From contig PXPA01000011.1 of assembly GCA_003022255.1 (NCBI GenBank), positions 1-41,337 on the forward strand: a stretch of DNA of 41,337 nt. Reading direction: 5' to 3'. Shown piece after piece: positions 6,215-17,884 of the stretch. The notes below the pieces were generated by a model. It ran no database searches, was not told the origin of the DNA, and saw only the letters and a program-made list of their open reading frames with translations. Position numbers and translations under genes: made by a program. How positions within the stretch are numbered: position 1 is the first letter of the stretch; each line of letters starts with the position of its first letter. The stretch comes from Parcubacteria group bacterium SW_6_46_9 (GTDB lineage Bacteria > Patescibacteriota > Minisyncoccia > Phycocordibacterales > SW-6-46-9).

Positions 6215-7507
6215 TTAGACAGTGAGTTTCTGCTTCGTGCGACCGGACGTGCCAAAAATATCCTTGAACCACTCGGCTCGTTCTCCGCCCTGCGCTTTCT
6301 CGGGGTTGTCAGACAGCTTAACCGTCTTCTTGCCAGCCGCTTCTGTCACTTTGATCACCACCGAAAACGGCTCGTAGCCGGGATCATGCGTCCGTGGCCA
6401 GACACCAGCACAGTTGTTAGTGAGATTCGTGCCGATACCAAACGTGTAAGTACCGACCTTGTGTCCGTGCTGTCTGTACAAGTTATTGACTCGTGTAGGG
6501 GTCAAACCATCACTGGGGATCAGCGTCCTATCCTGAGGATCAACACCGTGATCCTGCCACCAACTGATCACCTCTTCGGTGGCAACATCCGGATCCTTTG
6601 AGTCAAGACGCACTCCTTGGCAGTCTTCGGCCATCCACGCAGGGGCATTCTCAAGGAACTGGCTTGTGCCGAACGTATCCGGAAGCAGTACCGAAAGCTC
6701 TGGATAGATCTCATGCCAGCGTTTTACCACCTCATACTGCGACCGCCGGACCTCTTCGGGGTCATCATGTTCCGTCAGATTTGCTGCGATCATCGGCAGT
6801 TCATGCGCATTGGTCCCAATCGGATTACTGCTTCCCTGCTGTTTAGCCAGATAAACATTCGAGGTTCCGATGTACTGCTTAGGCAATTGCTCAGCCAGAA
6901 TATCCAGCACCTGCCTCTGGTGCTGAAAGCTATGACGGCGCCTAGTGCCGAAGTCGGCAAACGTCAGATCATACAGACGCAACTCCTCTACTGTAGACAA
7001 TGTTCGCTCAAGCATCCGGCCGTACAGACCCACAAACAATGAGTAGTAATACAGCTCCGATATAATCGGTAGCGCAATCGTCTCCCAGTAGGTTACTTCC
7101 TTCCAGGGGCCAGAAAAGGAAAGGTCAAACCGACCGTCATCAGTTACCTCCAGGTCATACTCAGGAAGCCGGAAGTCAGACAAAAAGTCGATATACGCAT
7201 CGCCAAACAAACGACCGCCGTCAAGTGGCAAACCACGCAGGTAAGCAAGCTCCGACGGCTGAAACCGCAAGTCCCGGGCGGCATCAAGCTGTTCGCGAAG
7301 CTGTGCTGGCGGGATAACCTCGGCCAACCGCACGTCATCCGACCGGACAGTCAGCGAGAACGTAGTCTCTGTGTCCGCCCAGTCATCGTACGTGTTGATG
7401 AACTGACCCATCGTGAACTTGTACATATCCGTGTCCAGAAGACTCTGGATAATCGGTTCATCAGAAGCTGGTGCAAATACGTCAGCAATGTTAAACAGAT
7501 TGCTCAT
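6215..7507 (-). CDS. pncB: nicotinate phosphoribosyltransferase
   Basis: The track ORF is 6215-7669. The likely true start is ATG at 7507 (MSNLFNIADVF...IIQSLLDTDMYKFTMGQ, the classic PncB N-terminus). Also present are FADFGTRRRHS and GTSNVYLA...GTNAHE. Confidence 0.85.
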   Translation of the reverse strand: MSNLFNIADVFAPASDEPIIQSLLDTDMYKFTMGQFINTYDDWADTETTFSLTVRSDDVRLAEVIPPAQLREQLDAARDLRFQPSELAYLRGLPLDGGRLFGDAYIDFLSDFRLPEYDLEVTDDGRFDLSFSGPWKEVTYWETIALPIISELYYYSLFVGLYGRMLERTLSTVEELRLYDLTFADFGTRRRHSFQHQRQVLDILAEQLPKQYIGTSNVYLAKQQGSSNPIGTNAHELPMIAANLTEHDDPEEVRRSQYEVVKRWHEIYPELSVLLPDTFGTSQFLENAPAWMAEDCQGVRLDSKDPDVATEEVISWWQDHGVDPQDRTLIPSDGLTPTRVNNLYRQHGHKVGTYTFGIGTNLTNNCAGVWPRTHDPGYEPFSVVIKVTEAAGKKTVKLSDNPEKAQGGERAEWFKDIFGTSGRTKQKLTV

Positions 7508-7697
7508 GGCTAAATGGATCTTGTGAAAAGTTGTGAAGGTGCAGTAAGGTACAAAAGTCTGCTTGGAATGCTTAAGCAAACTCAAGCACTCCAGACAAAC
7601 CCCGGCAGCTGCACGTGTGTCCTTGCAGCCGCCGGGAGAGTGTGAGTGTGTGAAAGTGAAAAAGAACAAACGAATCGCTCAGCACAGACGGAACAGA

Positions 7698-8471
7698 CTA
7701 AACCCCAAAACCGCCGACATCGCCATCAAACTGAGCCGTGCCCTGGCTGGCCTGCACGGCACTCCGAGAGAAGACGCCGAAGGCATCGCGGATCTCACTC
7801 TCGGTATTGCCGGGCGTAAGAATGCGGTCATCGGCGATACCCATATCTCCGAAGACGGTCCGGTAATCAGTTCGGCCGTCATCGATACCCATACCGACGA
7901 CGATAGACATCTCTTTGGCCAGCAGGTCATCGACCCAGTTTTTTACGTCGCCAACACTGTTGACGGACTCATTGTCGTCTCCGTCGGTCACAATTAGTGT
8001 GATGCTTCGCGCCATCACACCTGCGTTGGCGAACTTCTCAATCTGAGCGGCGACCGTTCCCAGCAGGTTGACCGACTCTTCATAGAGTGGTGTCCGGCCG
8101 GAGGGCTTGTAATTCGTCTGGTCCATCCGTAGCGCTTCATCAATCGGGCGGAAGTCATAAAAGACACCGCCGTTAAGATAGCGCGTATGGGCCAACACGG
8201 CATCTCGCTGTTTTGATGCTTGCAGCGCATCTATAACCGTGTTGTAACCAGAGCGGACTGCGTCAGTGTTGTTGTGATGCCGGATTGAACTTGAATCATC
8301 AATCAGCATCGTCACCAACAACACCTGGCTGGCAGTGACATCCTCGGTGCTGACACCTAAGCCCTTCTCAATCTGGTCGCTCAAGTCTGGGACGTTAACT
8401 GACCCAACCGTTTCTGGAGAAACGGTTGTGCCGGCCGCCTGCTTGAGCAGTGCTTCAGCTGAATCAGACAT
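7698..8471 (-). CDS. von Willebrand factor A (vWA) domain protein, TerY-like
   Basis: Likely start is ATG at 8471 (MSDSAEALL). LLVTMLIDDSSSI carries the DxSxS MIDAS motif, and ITLIVTDGDDN is the later vWA strand with Asp. At ~257 aa the size fits stand-alone TerY-type vWA proteins. Confidence 0.75.
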   Translation of the reverse strand: MSDSAEALLKQAAGTTVSPETVGSVNVPDLSDQIEKGLGVSTEDVTASQVLLVTMLIDDSSSIRHHNNTDAVRSGYNTVIDALQASKQRDAVLAHTRYLNGGVFYDFRPIDEALRMDQTNYKPSGRTPLYEESVNLLGTVAAQIEKFANAGVMARSITLIVTDGDDNESVNSVGDVKNWVDDLLAKEMSIVVGMGIDDGRTDYRTVFGDMGIADDRILTPGNTESEIRDAFGVFSRSAVQASQGTAQFDGDVGGFGV

Positions 8472-8526
8472 AACTGGTAGATAGTTAGTGCGACAGAGTG
8501 AATTATGAGCGTGTACGCCGTCCAAC

Positions 8527-9505
8527 CTACACGTCCAGCCAATCCGCCATCGGATCGGTGGACTGCACGACATTCATTCCGGCGTCACGATACCGTTGTA
8601 ACGCCTTCTGCGTTTGCTCGGTGAAGTCGGCACCAGGCACGACGACCGGCGACATGCAGTCCTCAAGGATGTACACCTTGCGTGCAAGCGCCTCGTCTCT
8701 GGCGACAATCTCGCCCAGAAGGTCATCAATCGTGGACTTAACGCAGTGACTGGCTGCCTGTCCGGCAATCAGCACTGCATCATTGTCCATCAGCGACTGA
8801 ATGAAGCTGGCATTCTTCTGGGCAAGCGGCTCTCCGTCGTGGCGAGTTGTAACCTCCGGCCCGAGAACGGAGTAGTTCTCCGTAAGCGGATTACCGCCCT
8901 TTACTTCCGGCCGAAAGTTAACACTGCGTACGTGCGAGTGAAACTCCACTGTCAGCAAGTTTCCGCACGTAGTGGTGTGTATACTGCACAAGCCACGAGT
9001 AATTATCAGTGCCGATTACCGTCTCGGTAATGCTTGGTTTCGGTCGCACACCTTTGTAAATAACCGAACCATCAAGGCTGGTATTCACGAGCGTACCGTT
9101 CTGCTCGACAATCAGTGTGTGCGGATCCAAAACTTCACCATCCGGCCCTTGCCAGAATGGTGCGGAGAAAATTTGAAACGGGACGTGCGTATCCAGCGTC
9201 ATCGTAATCTGACTGATGCCGGCCAGATTGCGGTAGATAAACTCCGCAATCCGCTGGGAATCCCGAATGGCACCATCTCCACTCTGGCCGGCCACATACA
9301 GCGTGCCTTCTCTATTGCAGAAATCACGCTGCACGTCAATGAGCAAAAGCTCAACGCTTTTGTCATCTGCTGCAGCCGGCGATACCGAGTTATTCTCCTT
9401 ATAGCTTCGGGCCGCCGTTTGGATTTCACTGATATCCGGGCTGTAAGCCCAGTCATCAGCGTTGTCAGAATCGTAGAATGAGGGAATGGGGAGTGTGCTG
9501 TTCAT
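8527..9505 (-). pseudogene. long isochorismatase-family hydrolase (PncA/nicotinamidase-like) with a 1-nt frameshift in 8918-8991
   Basis: ORF 8918-9505 has LLLIDVQRDFC. ORF 8527-8991 has LIAGQAASHCVKSTIDDL, the catalytic Cys region. The two frames overlap by 74 nt. This may equally be a sequencing indel. Confidence 0.65.
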
Positions 9506-9517
9506 CGGTCTAGAGAG

Positions 9518-11416
9518 TTACTGTGAAGAGATAGTGAGGTTCCATATACTCCGGCGGTTCACAGCTGTGAGACCACCGTTTCCGGGTAGCAAATGAGTAG
9601 TGCTATCCACAATGTGATCCGTGTCCGAGAACCGCTTGGCCGGAGCCAGTCGGTTCCCGTTCGGTTCGATGCGAACAACACCATCATCAGTTGCAGCCAA
9701 CAAGAAATTACCGGCTGCAAGCGTGCCCGTAATCTTCCCCAGCCAACTACCATCACCGGCAGTTGTCTGGGCTTTCGCCTGTACCGTCCCGTCATCTCCG
9801 ATCAGATAACAGCGATTGCGACGACGCCCCTGCTCGTTTACGGTCTGGAAAAACCAGATCCGATCACGACATATAGACGCCGTAGCATTGATAAGCTGGC
9901 CGGTAATCGGCGGGACGGTTACGTTTTCGTTGATACCGCGATAAGCAGTATCAAACACGAAATACTGCTGGATCTTACCAGCCCGATAGAAGCCGAAACC
10001 GTGCTTATCTCCAACCCAGAATAATGTTCGGTCTTTGAGGGCACTGCCAACAGACTGCGCATAATCCACGCCAAACTTTCCTGCTCGCTTGAGATCACCA
10101 TTGCGAACCCAAAACAGCTTGTCGCTGGTTACATCAAAAACGGGCTGCCGACCGAATGAGTCGACAGAAAGACGATCCTTTGATCTGTCCTTGCCAACCA
10201 AATGCATCGTTCCGTCCACCCCGAAGATCGTGGTATCACCATACAGTCGATACCGCGTAAGTGGGCGAACCGGTGCATCAGCTATCGGTGTGTCGTCTTC
10301 ACGAAAGAAGCGGCCGCCCTTGTGATACAGCCACTGCAGCTTATCGTTTTGGCAATCAGCAAACATAATTCGTCCGCTGGTGCGAAACACACGCGTCGCC
10401 GAAACATCATTTGTGACACGCTCGACTGTTTGGTCGCCACCACCGTCACTGCACTCCGGACACTGACTACGAGCGTGCACAAGACCACAAGACGAGCATG
10501 TCTGCCAATTTATGCCGGCAAGCAACTGTTCAGGAAACGGTTCGCGCCTGTCTTCGGTAAATACCTCCGAAAAGAAGTCAAGCAGATCCGGTGGCAGCAC
10601 ATCTGGAGTTCGAGCCGGTTTCGGGTACTGCACAGCGGAATCAAAAATTGTCACCCGACTGAGGATCCGCTCTGATCGTGACAGTTGATCGTCTCCGTTT
10701 TTGGGTCGATGAATACCGCTGTAAGGACTGGCAAACAACAACGACTGCAGCAAGAGAACACAGAACGCATACCAGTCAGACATCGCGTCATGGGGCTCTG
10801 CCAGTGTTAGCCCGCCGGTCGGATTCTGAATGCCATTCGAGCGGTTACTTGTTGTAAGCTTCGTTGGGTCAGCAAACCGTTGTGTGAATGTTCGGCAAAG
10901 AAAGTTGGCAAACTGATAGCTGTCAACATCAATCAAGCGCGGTGCGGTGCCCTTTACGAACACATTCAGGTCACTGAAGTCACCGATTACAATACCGGAC
11001 TCATGTAGCTCTTTGACTACGTTCCGCAACGCAGAAAACACGCTAACGACGGCATTTTCATCAATACTCGACCGGAATGTTTTGTCGGCGTAGCGAACAA
11101 GCAACTCTGCCCTCGTAACACGCTGCATACTGTAGCCGACAATAGCTCCGCTATCGTCTCTGGCTAGCGATTGCGGTGTTACTAATGCATTCGGGACCTG
11201 TTCGGGAAACTGTGGTAGCTTCTTTTGGTGTTCGGCAAGACGCTTGCGGGCTGCCTGCTTTTGTTCTGGTTGTCCGGCATGGTCCGGGTGGTCAGGTTGT
11301 TTGAATAGCTTCAGCACCCGATTGTTACCTAAGCGGTAAATATCGGCCTCGCCACCACTATCGATTATGTTCTGTGTGTCAAGCGAGTGAGTGCGACCGT
11401 CAACTTGAACCTTCAT
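9518..11416 (-). CDS. Ser/Thr protein kinase-like protein with a central Zn-ribbon and a large C-terminal repeat (beta-propeller-like) region
   Basis: AGGAGGTG-N6-ATG at 11416. Kinase-like elements are VLKLFK, HESGIVIGDFSDLNVFV and LIDVDS. The Zn-ribbon is CSSCGLVHARSQCPEC at nt ~10454-10498. The 300-aa C-terminus has recurring aromatic/Gly-Asp strands. Confidence 0.75.
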   Translation of the reverse strand: MKVQVDGRTHSLDTQNIIDSGGEADIYRLGNNRVLKLFKQPDHPDHAGQPEQKQAARKRLAEHQKKLPQFPEQVPNALVTPQSLARDDSGAIVGYSMQRVTRAELLVRYADKTFRSSIDENAVVSVFSALRNVVKELHESGIVIGDFSDLNVFVKGTAPRLIDVDSYQFANFLCRTFTQRFADPTKLTTSNRSNGIQNPTGGLTLAEPHDAMSDWYAFCVLLLQSLLFASPYSGIHRPKNGDDQLSRSERILSRVTIFDSAVQYPKPARTPDVLPPDLLDFFSEVFTEDRREPFPEQLLAGINWQTCSSCGLVHARSQCPECSDGGGDQTVERVTNDVSATRVFRTSGRIMFADCQNDKLQWLYHKGGRFFREDDTPIADAPVRPLTRYRLYGDTTIFGVDGTMHLVGKDRSKDRLSVDSFGRQPVFDVTSDKLFWVRNGDLKRAGKFGVDYAQSVGSALKDRTLFWVGDKHGFGFYRAGKIQQYFVFDTAYRGINENVTVPPITGQLINATASICRDRIWFFQTVNEQGRRRNRCYLIGDDGTVQAKAQTTAGDGSWLGKITGTLAAGNFLLAATDDGVVRIEPNGNRLAPAKRFSDTDHIVDSTTHLLPGNGGLTAVNRRSIWNLTISSQ

Positions 11417-12272
11417 TGGAATCACCTCCTGAAGAATTTTTGCGCGATAGTAATACGATAGTTGTGTCGTCTTTCAGTGGGCCAGCTGCAATCTGCACCC
11501 CTTTGCTGGATTCAGAAACCGAGGCGCTATTGAAAGCAGCCAGCTTTCGTCGGATTGCGTCCGGATTCTGAGCGTACTGATCGTCCTCAGTGATAGCTAA
11601 CAAAGAGAGACCCTGATCTTCTTGCTTATCGCCATCACAGGTAAGCGGTAAGCTCGCAGCCCCGTCGGTACCCAAGAGAACCGAATCTATCTCCTTTGTT
11701 TTCCGGCTACAAACAGTAAACTGCAGATCACCTTCAGAAAACGACTGCTGGTTAAGCAGTGCATAGGTCATGTACGGCGGCGTGTTGCCGGCAGATGCAG
11801 TAACGTCCTGCAGTTGGTCGTTGACGGCACAAAGGCCATCTCCAACTGCAAAGACATACGTTGTCTCCGGCAAAACGAGTAGGCCAAGCACTGTCGTAAG
11901 AAAGTAATCGTTGATCGTTTGAGAAAAGTTACCTCCCATTCTGTTAGCCAGTACCCGAATTTCCGCCAGTACATTCTCGCGGATCTTCTGCCAGAATCTA
12001 CCCTCAGACTGATCATCTGTTACGTCTTGGTTCGGCAACCTACCGGCCGAGACATTTTCATGTATTTGCTGTGTCATCAGCCGAGCAATCAGGTTAGCGC
12101 CTACCTCACTGTTAGTTCCGCCACTGCAGCCGTCACAGACCACCGCTGTATACAAATTCTCACTACGGTACAAATCGTACGCATCCTGATTATTGTGCCA
12201 GCGCGGTCGGCCCGGAAGCGTATGATACGACCCGGGAACGCTGCCAGCATGAAGCACAAATACGTCTTGCAT
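11400..12272 (-). CDS. PP2C-family protein phosphatase
   Basis: GAGGTG-N6-ATG at 12272. NQDAY, AVVCDGCSGG, VFAVGDGL and LLGTDGA are PP2C metal-binding-type motifs. The 3' end overlaps the kinase start by 17 nt. Confidence 0.75.
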   Translation of the reverse strand: MQDVFVLHAGSVPGSYHTLPGRPRWHNNQDAYDLYRSENLYTAVVCDGCSGGTNSEVGANLIARLMTQQIHENVSAGRLPNQDVTDDQSEGRFWQKIRENVLAEIRVLANRMGGNFSQTINDYFLTTVLGLLVLPETTYVFAVGDGLCAVNDQLQDVTASAGNTPPYMTYALLNQQSFSEGDLQFTVCSRKTKEIDSVLLGTDGAASLPLTCDGDKQEDQGLSLLAITEDDQYAQNPDAIRRKLAAFNSASVSESSKGVQIAAGPLKDDTTIVLLSRKNSSGGDSNEGSS

Positions 12273-12325
12273 AGCAATCACCTCTGTGTGGGGTTAGTCA
12301 ATTCCGTTGTGAAAGAGCACACTTT

Positions 12326-12340
12326 GTGTAATATTTACAC
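12326..12340. promoter_or_regulatory. perfect 15-bp palindrome GTGTAATATTTACAC (GT-N7-AC core); candidate NrtR operator
   Basis: It lies 54 nt upstream of the PP2C ATG, in the 145-nt gap after nrtR. It has a near-identical partner at 12378-12392. Confidence 0.5.
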
Positions 12341-12377
12341 TAAGTAAGTGTAAAAACAAAGTGGACACGAGTACTTC

Positions 12378-12392
12378 GTGTCAATATTACAC
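12378..12392. promoter_or_regulatory. second copy GTGTCAATATTACAC; its reverse complement matches the first site at 14/15 positions
   Basis: The centre-to-centre distance to site 1 is 52 bp. A 7-bp hairpin gacacga-gtact-tcgtgtc overlaps its left edge. Confidence 0.45.
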
Positions 12393-12417
12393 TAACAAAC
12401 TGAGCTTAGTGTGCAAG

Positions 12418-13107
12418 CTACAATAACTCTATAGTACGGATTTCATTATTTGTAAAGCGGTACAGCATAGCCGGTCGATGCGGTCCGTCCGTCTTCTTCT
12501 CGCCCGTTTCCTCTAAAGACAACTTCTTTTTGATTTTCCGGCGGAAGTTACGTTTATCTAGTTGTCGTCCTAAAATTTCCTCATACGTATCCTGCAGTTG
12601 CGTTAATGTAAATTTTTCTGGTAACAGTGTTTTTGTTATATTCGTATACGTTAGTTTTGCCTGCAATCTGTCCACAGCAGTATCAAGAATCTTGTTGTGG
12701 TCATACGCTAGTTTGCCAATATCTGCCACTGGCTTCCAGAATGACCGGCCATCATCGGCAACGGTGAGCTTAGTCGGCGGTGCTAATGCTAAATACGCGA
12801 CTGATACTACTCGACCACGTGGATCTCTGTTAACACCACTAAACGTATATAGTTGCTCTAAATGCGTATGATCAGGATTCATACCCCCCTTCTCTTCAAG
12901 GTGGCGTCGAGCCGAATCTTCGGCGGTCTCGGTTGGGTCAATTAGTCCGCCTGGAAACCCGGCGATATCTGTATAGTGTGGTGGTGTATGTACATCAATT
13001 AGCAGCGTTTGTAGCTTGTCTTCATAGACAGCAAACAGCACCGTGTCCGTAGCCAGTACAGCAAACTGCAAATCTTCCTTGTCGGATGTTTTGTTGTCGT
13101 CGGTCAT
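12418..13107 (-). CDS. nrtR: NrtR-type regulator (Nudix domain plus C-terminal winged helix)
   Basis: It has a degenerate Nudix box (GFPGGLIDPTETAEDSARRHLEEKGG), RDPRGRVVSVAY, LAYDHNKIL, FTLTQLQDTYEEILGRQLDKRNFRRK and HRPAMLYRF. This matches the NrtR family pattern as I remember it. An alternative upstream start exists at 13152. Confidence 0.75.
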   Translation of the reverse strand: MTDDNKTSDKEDLQFAVLATDTVLFAVYEDKLQTLLIDVHTPPHYTDIAGFPGGLIDPTETAEDSARRHLEEKGGMNPDHTHLEQLYTFSGVNRDPRGRVVSVAYLALAPPTKLTVADDGRSFWKPVADIGKLAYDHNKILDTAVDRLQAKLTYTNITKTLLPEKFTLTQLQDTYEEILGRQLDKRNFRRKIKKKLSLEETGEKKTDGPHRPAMLYRFTNNEIRTIELL

Positions 13108-13164
13108 AGCTAATATAGAGTTCGTGTGTTTTTTACAATACATGAGGTGCAAGCAGATGCAAGT

Positions 13165-14811
13165 TTAGTTAATCTGCTTTTCAGCAACAAGCACGATATT
13201 TGTCGGGGGGTAGGCAATTTGTTCTTTGGGCTTGCCGTTTTCATTAACAGCGAAAAGTGTTAGTGCGTCTTCCCAGCGATTTTCTACAATCCAGTCACTT
13301 TGATAAACACGAGTACCGGCCTGATTTGGCGTATCAGCAACCACCGCAAAACCAGCCGCCTCCGCTGCCTTCCGCCAATCAGTGATATCCCAAAAAGCAA
13401 ACTCCTCCTGCAACTCACTATACCAGTTGTCCGTGTAATCTTTTTTGGTCATAAACTCAGTCATATCTTTATACGAGGCAATGATATACTCCTCTCCCTC
13501 ATGCCTTTCTGTTGTATACTCAAACGAATAATCATCTCGCTGATGCAGATACTCACGAGCAAACCGTTCAAATCGTCCGCGTGTAGACAACCCTTTTAGA
13601 TACGCTGCATACTCTTTACGTTCATCTTCTGCAAATACCTTATTCGGATCATTACTTTTGCCGTTGTCTGTGCGCAACTTGGCTGCAATATTTCGACCAC
13701 TATCTTTCGGACCGACAACATCACGGATTACGAGCCGACCACCCGGCTTTAGCTGGTCATACTTCATCTGTAGATACTTATATAATGAATCCTCACCATC
13801 ACCATAGGAGTAGATTTCGTGCGTCGTTGAATTGCACAAAACGGTATCAATCGAGTTATCCTCAAAAACTGGATCCATAATGTTGCGCTGGTACACATCT
13901 ACAAATGTCCCGCCGAACACTCCGGCGCGGATACGCTCTTCGAAACGAGCCTTAAACTCACTGGTAATTTCAATACCAATTAGGTCTGAGTCCGGAAAGT
14001 CGTCAGATACCCGCTCGAGTAACGCACCATCAGCACACCCCTCATCAACGATACGCCCGGATACAACTGCATCTTTAACATCGTTATACTTCATATCCAA
14101 AATATCCGAATTAGCCATTCCACGTAAATAAACTGAGTAAGACCTGGTCTCGGTTATCGACCCCTCTTCAGTTAACAACGGTTCGTTAGCAATTCGGATT
14201 ATCTTATCAGGTACTCGTGGTACCTGTTGCCAAAAATTATAATGAGCTTCGCTGAGGTAATTTTCTCCGCTTTCTTCAAACCACTCCCGGCCGGATTCCA
14301 TAAAATCATCAAGAATATCGCGAGGTGGTTTATTGGTGTATACGCCTTTTTTCGGATCCCATTCTCCACAAGCAATCGCGTATCCACAATCTCGGAATAA
14401 CTCAACCACTGACTCTGTCGAGCTAAATACGATAGTGTTTTCCGGAGTAATTTTATTACCCTCAAGCTGAAGATTGCAGTGGCTGATGACATGTTGTGCA
14501 AATTTGTCCGTTGGTTGGTAATGGGGAATTTCCGCAATGTCATAACTAACATCAAGAAAGTCATAAAATGGGCGCATAAATCGATCAACGCCAATTGCTC
14601 GATCTGCAAGCGAGAGCGGGTTATAGCGTGAGTTTGATTTGTTGGCTGAGGTGATAGCAAAGATGACCTCATCAATCACCTCGCCCTCACTGCCAACAAA
14701 GTCACCATACAAGTCAAGTTGTGAAATTGGTGTTCGGCAAATGTCTTTCAGGTACTCCTCCTGAAATTTGGTTGTAATAATTTGTCGACCAGGCATCAGT
14801 AGATTTGCCAT
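13165..14811 (-). CDS. two-domain protein: N-terminal NadM/NMNAT-like nucleotidyltransferase fold lacking HxGH, fused to a class I SAM-dependent methyltransferase
   Basis: The N-terminus (LLMPGRQIITTKFQEEYL ... EVIFAITSANKSNSRYNPLSLADR ... YTNKPPRD) lines up with archaeal-type NadM (GRxQPFHxGH ... IGSAQxSHxxxDPFTxxER ... YSGTxxR), but H/G/H are replaced. The C-terminal part has IVDEGCADG and LKPGGRLVIRDVVGP, which are SAM-MTase motifs I and post-II. Confidence 0.6.
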   Translation of the reverse strand: MANLLMPGRQIITTKFQEEYLKDICRTPISQLDLYGDFVGSEGEVIDEVIFAITSANKSNSRYNPLSLADRAIGVDRFMRPFYDFLDVSYDIAEIPHYQPTDKFAQHVISHCNLQLEGNKITPENTIVFSSTESVVELFRDCGYAIACGEWDPKKGVYTNKPPRDILDDFMESGREWFEESGENYLSEAHYNFWQQVPRVPDKIIRIANEPLLTEEGSITETRSYSVYLRGMANSDILDMKYNDVKDAVVSGRIVDEGCADGALLERVSDDFPDSDLIGIEITSEFKARFEERIRAGVFGGTFVDVYQRNIMDPVFEDNSIDTVLCNSTTHEIYSYGDGEDSLYKYLQMKYDQLKPGGRLVIRDVVGPKDSGRNIAAKLRTDNGKSNDPNKVFAEDERKEYAAYLKGLSTRGRFERFAREYLHQRDDYSFEYTTERHEGEEYIIASYKDMTEFMTKKDYTDNWYSELQEEFAFWDITDWRKAAEAAGFAVVADTPNQAGTRVYQSDWIVENRWEDALTLFAVNENGKPKEQIAYPPTNIVLVAEKQIN

Positions 14812-14969
14812 ATGACTACATACTACAATATGAGTTATCCATATTAAAAAGGTGCTCGTTTAACTATTACCCCTCTCCCCCATTACTTTTGAAGCAGTGC
14901 TCATATTACGTTCTACTAAGCACTTTTGGGGTTACTCATGTTAAAACCGAAATTAAGTGGGTGCGCTGG

Positions 14970-16747: not shown

Positions 16748-17884
16748 TTAAGCATTGCGACGCACTATTTCTGCCGCTTTATGCTTTTTCTCGCCTGTGA
16801 CCTGACGAGTATGCTTATTTAACCCCAAAGGAAGAGCGGGGTCTTCCTCCATGCTAACTAGCTCAACCTCAACATACGCACGCCGAACCGGTTCTTTGAT
16901 TACGTCAATAACAAACCGATACCCTTCAGCGTATAGGTAATACCGGTCTTTTACCATACCAGGGTAAACGGATTCGTTCACCTCATCCCGGAATTCACTT
17001 TTAGTAATATCTTCAGAAGTCTCGCCACGCTCACCAAAATCTTCTGTTGGTCTTTTAGTGGTCTTAATATACTCAACTTCACCAGTCTCCATACCCTTTC
17101 TGCGACGGACGCGTTTTTCCACCTCTGCAGATATTTTCGTATATGCCTGCACCAGCTCGACCCCGGAAAGATTATGCTCATCCACAAATTCTTCTGCGAA
17201 ACCGTAGTCAGTTACCAGGTGTTTTCTTTCTTTTTCACGAGCATTCGGCATATGAAGCACCCGATTAAAAGCACTTATTGCTCGCATGACCTTCTCTGTA
17301 AATCCGGTACTGTTATCGATAACCCTATGGTTGCGGTGGCTTGACCAGGCGCTTTTAGTTGCTTTGTCTAATTGCCTAGCCTCTTCTGGGCTTTCAGTGC
17401 GGGCAGTATTATTTTCAGTCGTATAATGCTCTTTGGCTCCATTTGCGGCTGTTACCATGTGCACCACTAAATCATACCGAGATAGTATGTCGGTATTTGC
17501 AGACACGCCAAGATCAGCCACAATTTCCTCAAAGATCGATCGTTCTACGTAGGCCAGCGAGTCGAAAATAGCACGGTCACAGATTAGTACCCGCTCTTTA
17601 TCTGTATTCATTTTAAGCAACCCACGACAGCGGATGTTCTCTTTTCTGATTTGCTCTCGTATGATTAGCTCTTGGAAGTCATAATCAGTGAGATTTTCCG
17701 GTGTGATATTTGACCGAATGAGCCCGGTCGGCGTCTCTGATAGGGTTGCCACAGCAAAATCATGTCTTTGCAAAAGCGTAACCACCCTATTAATCAATGC
17801 TGTTTTTCCAGCACACGGGCCTCCAGTCACTACAATTACATTGACATCCTTGTTTACATTCGTCTTTATAGCAGTCGGGTTCAT
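16748..17884 (-). CDS. P-loop kinase (NadR C-terminal / AAA_28-like) fused to a CYTH (triphosphate tunnel) domain
   Basis: The Walker A is VVTGGPCAGKTAL. The second half begins REKERKHLV, giving the ExExK signature of CYTH, and ends in beta-strand-like YVEVELV. Confidence 0.6.
   Translation of the reverse strand: MNPTAIKTNVNKDVNVIVVTGGPCAGKTALINRVVTLLQRHDFAVATLSETPTGLIRSNITPENLTDYDFQELIIREQIRKENIRCRGLLKMNTDKERVLICDRAIFDSLAYVERSIFEEIVADLGVSANTDILSRYDLVVHMVTAANGAKEHYTTENNTARTESPEEARQLDKATKSAWSSHRNHRVIDNSTGFTEKVMRAISAFNRVLHMPNAREKERKHLVTDYGFAEEFVDEHNLSGVELVQAYTKISAEVEKRVRRRKGMETGEVEYIKTTKRPTEDFGERGETSEDITKSEFRDEVNESVYPGMVKDRYYLYAEGYRFVIDVIKEPVRRAYVEVELVSMEEDPALPLGLNKHTRQVTGEKKHKAAEIVRRNA

Follow-up and report, generated by a model that had tools for sequence, protein, structure and literature searches.

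The window, i.e., the whole stretch of DNA analyzed here (41,337 nucleotides), is one whole contig (C11) of a 66-contig, 625,840-bp assembly (46% G+C, ~61% complete). The genes surrounding the sites described below are all on the minus strand, in the order methyltransferase fusion (548 aa), nrtR, a 136-bp gap, a PP2C phosphatase gene, a kinase gene, an isochorismatase-fold gene (2 frames), a vWA-like gene and pncB. Their coordinates and main features are as follows.

13165-14811, minus strand: methyltransferase fusion, 548 aa, upstream of nrtR
12418-13152, minus strand: nrtR, 244 aa; stop codon at 12418-12420, likely true start ATG 13107
11400-12281, minus strand: PP2C phosphatase gene; ATG 12272 (ORF from GTG 12281), Shine-Dalgarno GAGGTG 12285-12280, Pfam PP2C_2 2.1e-16
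9518-11425, minus strand: Ser/Thr-kinase-like protein; CxxC...CxxC zinc ribbon, C-terminal domain of ~300 aa
8527-9505, minus strand: long nicotinamidase-like (isochorismatase-fold) gene; two overlapping frames, 8918-9505 and 8527-8991
7698-8573, minus strand: vWA-like protein; DxSxS...T...D MIDAS pattern invariant in the alignment
6215-7669, minus strand: pncB, nicotinate phosphoribosyltransferase; Pfam NAPRTase 2.7e-38, likely start ATG 7507

The nrtR product contains a NUDIX domain (Pfam, 2.2e-10) and the winged-helix DNA-binding domain NrtR_WHD (1.3e-27), and its homologs in the PDB include the arabinose regulator BtAraR (5bs6, 9e-29) and the Shewanella NrtR (3gz5, 9e-28). The Nudix box reads G-x5-E-x7-R-H-L-E-E-K-G-G-M, with two catalytic glutamates replaced; the domain is degenerate and presumably non-catalytic. 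Two other genomes (L051, 2807-4498; L059, 3713-5401) also encode homologs of the methyltransferase fusion (43-45% identity) no more than a few kb from nrtR/NAD genes, a recurrence which suggests that the fusion is connected to the NAD locus. Further upstream of nrtR, at a distance of ~3.6 kb and three genes, a 378-aa AAA_28 (ribosylnicotinamide-kinase-like) protein with a C-terminal extension is encoded at 16748-17884 (minus strand); no NrtR site was found near this gene. In another genome, a 539-aa protein (L048 7948-9567, G103:C6) is a fusion of an AAA_28 (NadR ribosylnicotinamide-kinase-like) P-loop domain, a Nudix domain and a truncated NrtR winged helix. It adjoins a 1176-aa protein with AMP-binding, PP-binding, reductase and AAA_28 domains, and no operator of at least 15 bits was found near the fusion.

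Downstream of nrtR, the PP2C gene is the first gene in the putatively controlled operon. The kinase-like protein that follows it has a weak Pfam Pkinase match (0.008) and weak Pkinase/RIO matches, with orthologs at 36-44% identity in L015, L052, L057 and L059. Both halves of the split nicotinamidase-like gene align to an intact 361-aa ortholog (G087), and the split is explained either by a frameshift/pseudogene or by misassembly. In the cassette, the protein labeled ‘isochorismatase’ (L015 12275-13360 and 12 homologs) belongs to a 275-410-aa family for which Pfam gives no match. The profile of this long isochorismatase-fold family matches PDB nicotinamidases specifically (29iv, 2h0r, 3pl1; E 2e-6 to 8e-6) and its D/K/C and D-x-H residues are invariant; the protein is read as a putative long PncA variant with inserts. 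For the vWA-like protein there are only weak PDB vWA matches (E 0.05) and none in Pfam, and a search with the PADLOC defense models gave no significant match for the operon proteins.

The ~190-bp gap before pncB contains no operator. It contains a GC-rich inverted repeat (7600-7640, minus strand; GGCTGCA...TGCAGCTGCC, then GTTTGT), which may be a terminator that parts pncB from the operon. Co-transcription of pncB with the PP2C operon is uncertain, and several relatives have a separate operator for pncB. In one related locus (L058 8427-9735, G165:C4) pncB is present as two overlapping ORFs, another possible frameshift in a NAD-salvage gene.

Palindromic sites in the gap between nrtR and the PP2C gene

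A previous, sequence-only reading of this DNA placed two palindromic sites directly after nrtR and ahead of the PP2C start, and both do occupy the gap between the nrtR stop codon (12418-12420) and the PP2C ATG (12272). The first, GTGTAATATTTACAC at 12326-12340, is the perfect palindrome that had been described (6-3-6, no mismatch), and the reverse complement of the second, GTGTCAATATTACAC at 12378-12392, differs from it at one position (14/15), again as claimed. The symmetry of each site extends beyond the 15-bp core and reaches 21-25 bp (12323-12343 and 12375-12395), with TTnGTGTAA-N3-TTACACnAA as the 21-bp form common to both. The GT-N7-AC core attributed to the two sites is present in each of them, centered within the 21-bp palindrome, and in each 21-mer GT occupies positions 6-7 and AC positions 15-16, in agreement with the published register. 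Rodionov et al. 2008 (PMC2330246), to which that attribution refers, give a GT-N7-AC core and 21-bp palindrome symmetry for most NrtR motifs.

The sites of the locus, scored with the matrix described in the next section, are listed below; the palindromes are unstranded.

12323-12343: predicted operator O1; TTTGTGTAATATTTACACTAA, minus strand TTAGTGTAAATATTACACAAA; perfect 15-bp core; 27.4 bits, rank 1 in 626 kb
12375-12395: predicted operator O2; TTCGTGTCAATATTACACTAA, minus strand TTAGTGTAATATTGACACGAA; 24.0 bits, genome rank 2; core with 1 mismatch relative to O1
12406-12426: candidate weak operator O3; TTAGTGTGCAAGCTACAATAA; 16.5 bits, genome rank 3; refound by the pattern scan
13121-13141: possible weak autoregulatory site; minus strand GTATTGTAAAAAACACACGAA; 12.6 bits, which is at noise level; 14-34 bp upstream of ATG 13107

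O1 and O2 are centered 61 and 113 bp upstream of the PP2C ATG, respectively, and the right half of O2 includes TTGACA. Their centers, at 12333 and 12385, have the 52-bp spacing that had been reported. The description of this spacing as about five helical turns is correct for the window but does not hold as a feature of the family: the tandem sites of relatives are anywhere from 24 to 100 bp apart, and helical phasing is therefore not a conserved requirement. O3 overlaps the nrtR stop codon and is 31 bp from O2; in L051 a similar TTAGTGTGCAAcc... site is located ~40 bp downstream of the nrtR stop. The weak 13121-13141 site shares its position with sites just upstream of nrtR in L013, L014, L015, L039, L040, L047 and L053. 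The methyltransferase-fusion gene is preceded by a weak match at 14858-14872, which was rejected (no GT core, score <8).

Occurrence of the motif in the assembly and in related genomes

Within the window there are 6 matches with ≤3 mismatches, versus 1.06 expected, and 0 of 100 shuffles reached 6. The whole-genome scan with the 15-mer that the sequence-only reading had suggested bears out its expectation of a confined motif: with ≤1 mismatch, only the two window sites are recovered from the 625,840-bp assembly (~61% complete). The matches in the assembly with 2 mismatches or lower scores are at noise level and were dismissed as operators (C39:6107, 16.3 bits, inside a transketolase ORF; C53:15854, 12.9 bits, at the infC/rpmI junction).

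For scoring we constructed a symmetric 21-bp matrix from 34 sites, taken from other genomes only (consensus TTAGTGTATAATATACACTAA; 23.5 bits of information). Ranks 1-3 for the ~61%-complete, 626-kb assembly are all within the nrtR-PP2C gap region. Among 20 simulated genomes, scores of ≥23 bits were reached only twice anywhere in 626 kb. Extrapolating from these simulated rates, the chance of finding two ≥23-bit matches and a third match inside one 136-bp gap would be of the order of 1e-10. The training sites of the matrix were seeded with the pattern first seen in the window; most of this circularity is removed by a palindrome enumeration that is independent of the window.

That enumeration used the relatives of the host. 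nrtR was found in 26 of 401 genomes of the same order, ~18 kb was fetched around each copy, and neighboring ORFs in the nrtR loci were classified by BLAST against reference proteins. Every combination of 4-mer, gap and reverse complement was then enumerated in 24 nrtR loci from which the window was excluded, so the motif emerges without input from the window. The top motif was GTGT-N7-ACAC, with 34 occurrences within 300 bp of nrtR in 18 of the 24 loci (0.67 expected, p 2e-45), and the next-ranked patterns (AGTG-N9-CACT, TGTA-N5-TACA, TAGT-N11-ACTA and TTAG-N13-CTAA) are nested registers. The lineage-specific operator consensus is TTAGTGTA-N5-TACACTAA. In 7 genomes, one of them a complete single contig, all matches to TAGTGTA-N5-TACACTA with ≤1 mismatch are in the nrtR/NAD locus; at 2 mismatches the count in the same 7 genomes equals that of a reversed-pattern control, with 18 of 31 matches in the fetched nrtR/NAD loci. 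Conservation, the second check put forward by the earlier reading, was thus found: among the 24 related genomes examined, the palindrome flanks nrtR and precedes NAD-salvage genes, including all of the orthologous PP2C-kinase-nicotinamidase-vWA operons examined. A search of genome contigs for related loci yielded only Bacteroidota homologs and one from Bacilli, at 30-40% identity and without the motif.

Across ~430 kb of loci, sites of ≥15 bits are almost exclusively positioned just upstream or downstream of nrtR or upstream of NAD-salvage and cassette genes, and many of them are outside the regions used for training the matrix. Genes that carry sites are nadM, nadV, pncA, pncB, pnuC-nadR, the PP2C gene and the gene for the long isochorismatase-fold protein. 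Cassettes on contigs with nrtR have upstream sites in 5/5 cases for the order PP2C-kinase-isochorismatase-vWA (window, L015, L052, L057, L059) and in 5/5 for the order isochorismatase-vWA-PP2C-kinase (L039, L045, L046, L049, L050). In G125, where cassette and nrtR are on separate contigs, a weaker palindrome (15.5 bits) is present 53-73 bp upstream of the cassette. Two genomes without nrtR were informative as well: no site was found at the isolated nicotinamidase-like gene copy of G256 or at the full cassette of G370. Cassette and nrtR co-occur over the 401 genomes (13 have both and 373 have neither, 2 have just the cassette and 13 just nrtR; Fisher p 1e-15).

The second gene order (long nicotinamidase-vWA-PP2C-kinase) was observed in L039, L045, L046, L049, L050, L062 and L065. 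Its kinase is 22-28% identical to that of the window, and pncA, pncB or nadE is often the next gene. Our literature search found no paper that links NrtR with Patescibacteria, and none that links NrtR with PP2C, TerY or vWA.

Candidate promoter, hairpin and predicted regulation

Two further features of the gap bear on how the sites might act.

12364-12382, minus strand: stem-loop GACACGA-AGUAC-UCGUGUC, then CACUUUGUUUUU / CACTTTGTTTTT, a T-rich tract; terminator-like match
12325-12354, minus strand: best candidate promoter of the PP2C operon; -35 TTTACA (12354-12349), -10 TATTAC (12333-12328) or TACACA (12330-12325) inside O1

The hairpin had been noticed before, and its 7-bp stem (GACACGA/TCGTGTC, 12382-12364 on the minus strand) does overlap the second site, O2. 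With its T-run it is the probable intrinsic terminator of the methyltransferase-nrtR transcript. A strict sigma-70 scan of 12150-12550 found no promoter, and a relaxed hexamer scan of the gap gave only weak candidates, the best being TTTACA-N15/18-TATTAC/TACACA across O1, in which TTTACA is just downstream of the hairpin and T-run. The TTGACA in O2 was dropped as a -35 element (no -10 partner at 16-18 bp), and the combination TTGCAC(O3)-N16-TAGTGT(O2) was not adopted because transcription from it would run directly into the hairpin.

Operators in relatives also coincide with sigma-70-like elements. In L057, TTGCAA-N17-TATAAT has its TATAAT at the operator center, and at pncB of L049, TTGACA-N16-TATAAT overlaps the operator. 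In L059, L047 and L014 the right half of the upstream operator has TTGACA, and the next operator, at a distance of 34-35 bp, has TATAGT or TATACT on its left edge. Such overlaps would fit repression by promoter occlusion. The architecture is not fixed, since relatives differ widely in how far the operator is from the start codon and in how the sites are spaced.

The proposal that the palindromes are candidate NrtR operators is supported by the adjacent gene with NUDIX and NrtR_WHD domains, the published format of the sites, the genome scan and the conservation in relatives. We consider it very likely that O1 and O2 are operators of the NrtR encoded immediately upstream, and the weaker O3 probably is as well. 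That NrtR binds, in which direction it acts, which effector it senses and where the promoter lies are inferences; by analogy with known members of the family, NrtR would be a repressor and ADP-ribose its inducer.

According to the model that we favor, one NrtR dimer would bind per site. O1, which overlaps the likeliest promoter of the PP2C-kinase-long nicotinamidase-vWA operon, would be the primary operator, and O2 and O3 would be auxiliary upstream sites around the terminator-like hairpin that probably ends the nrtR transcript. NrtR on O1 would block RNA polymerase, aided by the upstream sites, until a product of NAD breakdown, for which ADP-ribose is the precedent, binds the degenerate Nudix domain and NrtR leaves the DNA. 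Consumption of NAD could in this way turn on nicotinamide salvage along with the associated phospho-switch.

NrtR could also use these operators in another mode, either activating the operon or responding to a different ligand (NAD, NaAD, nicotinamide or a signal from the triad that depends on phosphorylation). The window’s promoter candidate is weak, O1 is centered 61 bp from the ATG, and control varies within the family, with arabinose as the effector of BtAraR and acetylation as an additional control on the NrtR of Mycobacterium smegmatis (MsNrtR; PMC6800001). However, the characterized NAD-type NrtRs are all repressors that are released by ADP-ribose, the operators of relatives are on -10 or -35 elements, and the regulon consists of NAD-salvage genes, all of which make a different mode unlikely.

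The palindromes might instead act mainly at the RNA level, as hairpins that form a terminator or attenuator in the nrtR-PP2C gap, and not as protein-binding DNA. Each palindrome can fold as a hairpin, and the 7-bp, GC-containing stem followed by a T-run gives a 56-nt fold of -13.3 kcal/mol (z = -2.6). The fold of the whole intergenic gap, however, is unexceptional (z = -1.27), and Rfam has no match in the gap, with only three tRNAs across the window. Moreover, conservation concerns the half-site sequence (TTAGTGTA/TACACTAA) with a free center and not pairing, and the motif also precedes unlinked genes and occurs within divergent promoter regions irrespective of orientation. The hairpin itself uses only half of O2 plus flanking sequence and may be a true terminator that exists besides the operators. 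We regard a mainly RNA-level role as very improbable. Least credible of all is that the palindromes arose by chance or are targets of an unrelated protein (another regulator, or a mobile-element end): single ≥23-bit matches do appear in ~1/10 simulated genomes and 2-mismatch counts equal the reversed-pattern control, but here the two top matches and a third are in one 136-bp gap adjoining nrtR, a de novo search around nrtR recovered the motif in 18/24 other genomes, and the motif is absent at cassette genes of nrtR-less genomes and has no further copies in the assembly.

With O1, O2 and probably O3 taken as NrtR operators, the kind of element is ordinary; what is new is the lineage, the consensus and the content of the regulon (a phospho-signaling triad and a long nicotinamidase). 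The sites give a first regulatory handle on an uncharacterized PP2C/kinase/vWA/long-nicotinamidase cassette, which, if control by NrtR and ADP-ribose holds, belongs to NAD homeostasis and not to generic signaling or defense. More tentatively, the operators would bring two things under control of NAD/ADP-ribose status, a phospho-switch like that of TerY-P (PP2C, zinc-ribbon kinase, vWA) and a long nicotinamidase; this arrangement recurs in the small-genome order, where 13 of the 15 cassette-carrying genomes among 401 also have nrtR. The triad might then serve as a post-translational gate on nicotinamide salvage or as a sensor of NAD depletion (e.g., during phage attack or host interaction). We consider this less likely than not; if true, such a role is undescribed for both TerY-P modules and NrtR regulons.

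We know of almost no transcriptional regulons in the candidate phyla radiation. These reduced genomes, many of them unable to make NAD de novo, would retain a dedicated sensor of NAD turnover. The full set of regulator, operators and targets can be read from the sequence and is testable with a single purified protein, and the consensus TTAGTGTA-N5-TACACTAA can be used for annotation of NAD regulons throughout the order.

Comparison with known NrtR and TerY-P systems

The predicted operators resemble those of the NrtR NAD regulons (tandem prs-nadV sites of Shewanella oneidensis; nadM-nadV, nadE and nadA of Synechocystis; PMC2330246) in being 21-bp palindromes with a GT-N7-AC core. The likeness to these systems extends to the position near nrtR and upstream of NAD-salvage genes, the tandem sites, and a regulator composed of Nudix and winged-helix domains with a degenerate Nudix box. 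Tandem sites have been confirmed by EMSA in both Shewanella (PMC2330246) and Bacteroides (PMC4666351); in Shewanella, they gave two shifted complexes, and ADP-ribose suppressed NrtR binding (PMC2330246). Unlike the operators in that study, those of the window follow a lineage-specific consensus, and the host is a member of the Parcubacteria (candidate phyla radiation). The predicted regulon also differs from those described there in that its first genes encode a PP2C phosphatase and a kinase instead of a NAD enzyme.

The best structural homolog of the window’s NrtR is AraR of Bacteroides thetaiotaomicron (PDB 5bs6, 5dd4; PMC4666351). AraR likewise has 21-bp semi-palindromic operators, which occur as two tandem sites separated by 3 or 42 nt, and is a repressor released by a small ligand (PMC4666351). 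It senses L-arabinose and controls sugar genes, whereas the regulon of the window is one of NAD salvage, so a NAD-derived ligand would be expected, unlike in AraR. Because BtAraR senses arabinose, ADP-ribose is not guaranteed as the effector of the window’s NrtR. MsNrtR (PMC6800001) is an auto-repressor with a palindrome between nrtR and the target operon, and ADP-ribose releases it. In MsNrtR and the window’s NrtR, the same two Glu residues of the Nudix box are replaced (RQ..EK in the catalytically inactive MsNrtR, RH..EK in the window; PMC6800001). MsNrtR differs in its motif (GTTTTCGA-N7-TCGAAAAC) and in controlling de novo nadABC rather than salvage (PMC6800001).

PMC11090510 describes the TerY-P triad, after Anantharaman et al. 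2012, as a set of three proteins: vWA, PP2C and a Ser/Thr kinase that carries a zinc ribbon. The operon of the window may be similar, with its PP2C phosphatase, its kinase-like protein bearing a CxxC..CxxC ribbon and its vWA-like protein in which the MIDAS pattern is present. It differs from the triad as presented there in that the three genes are joined to a long nicotinamidase and belong to a predicted NrtR regulon, and in that the kinase has an additional C-terminal domain of ~300 aa.
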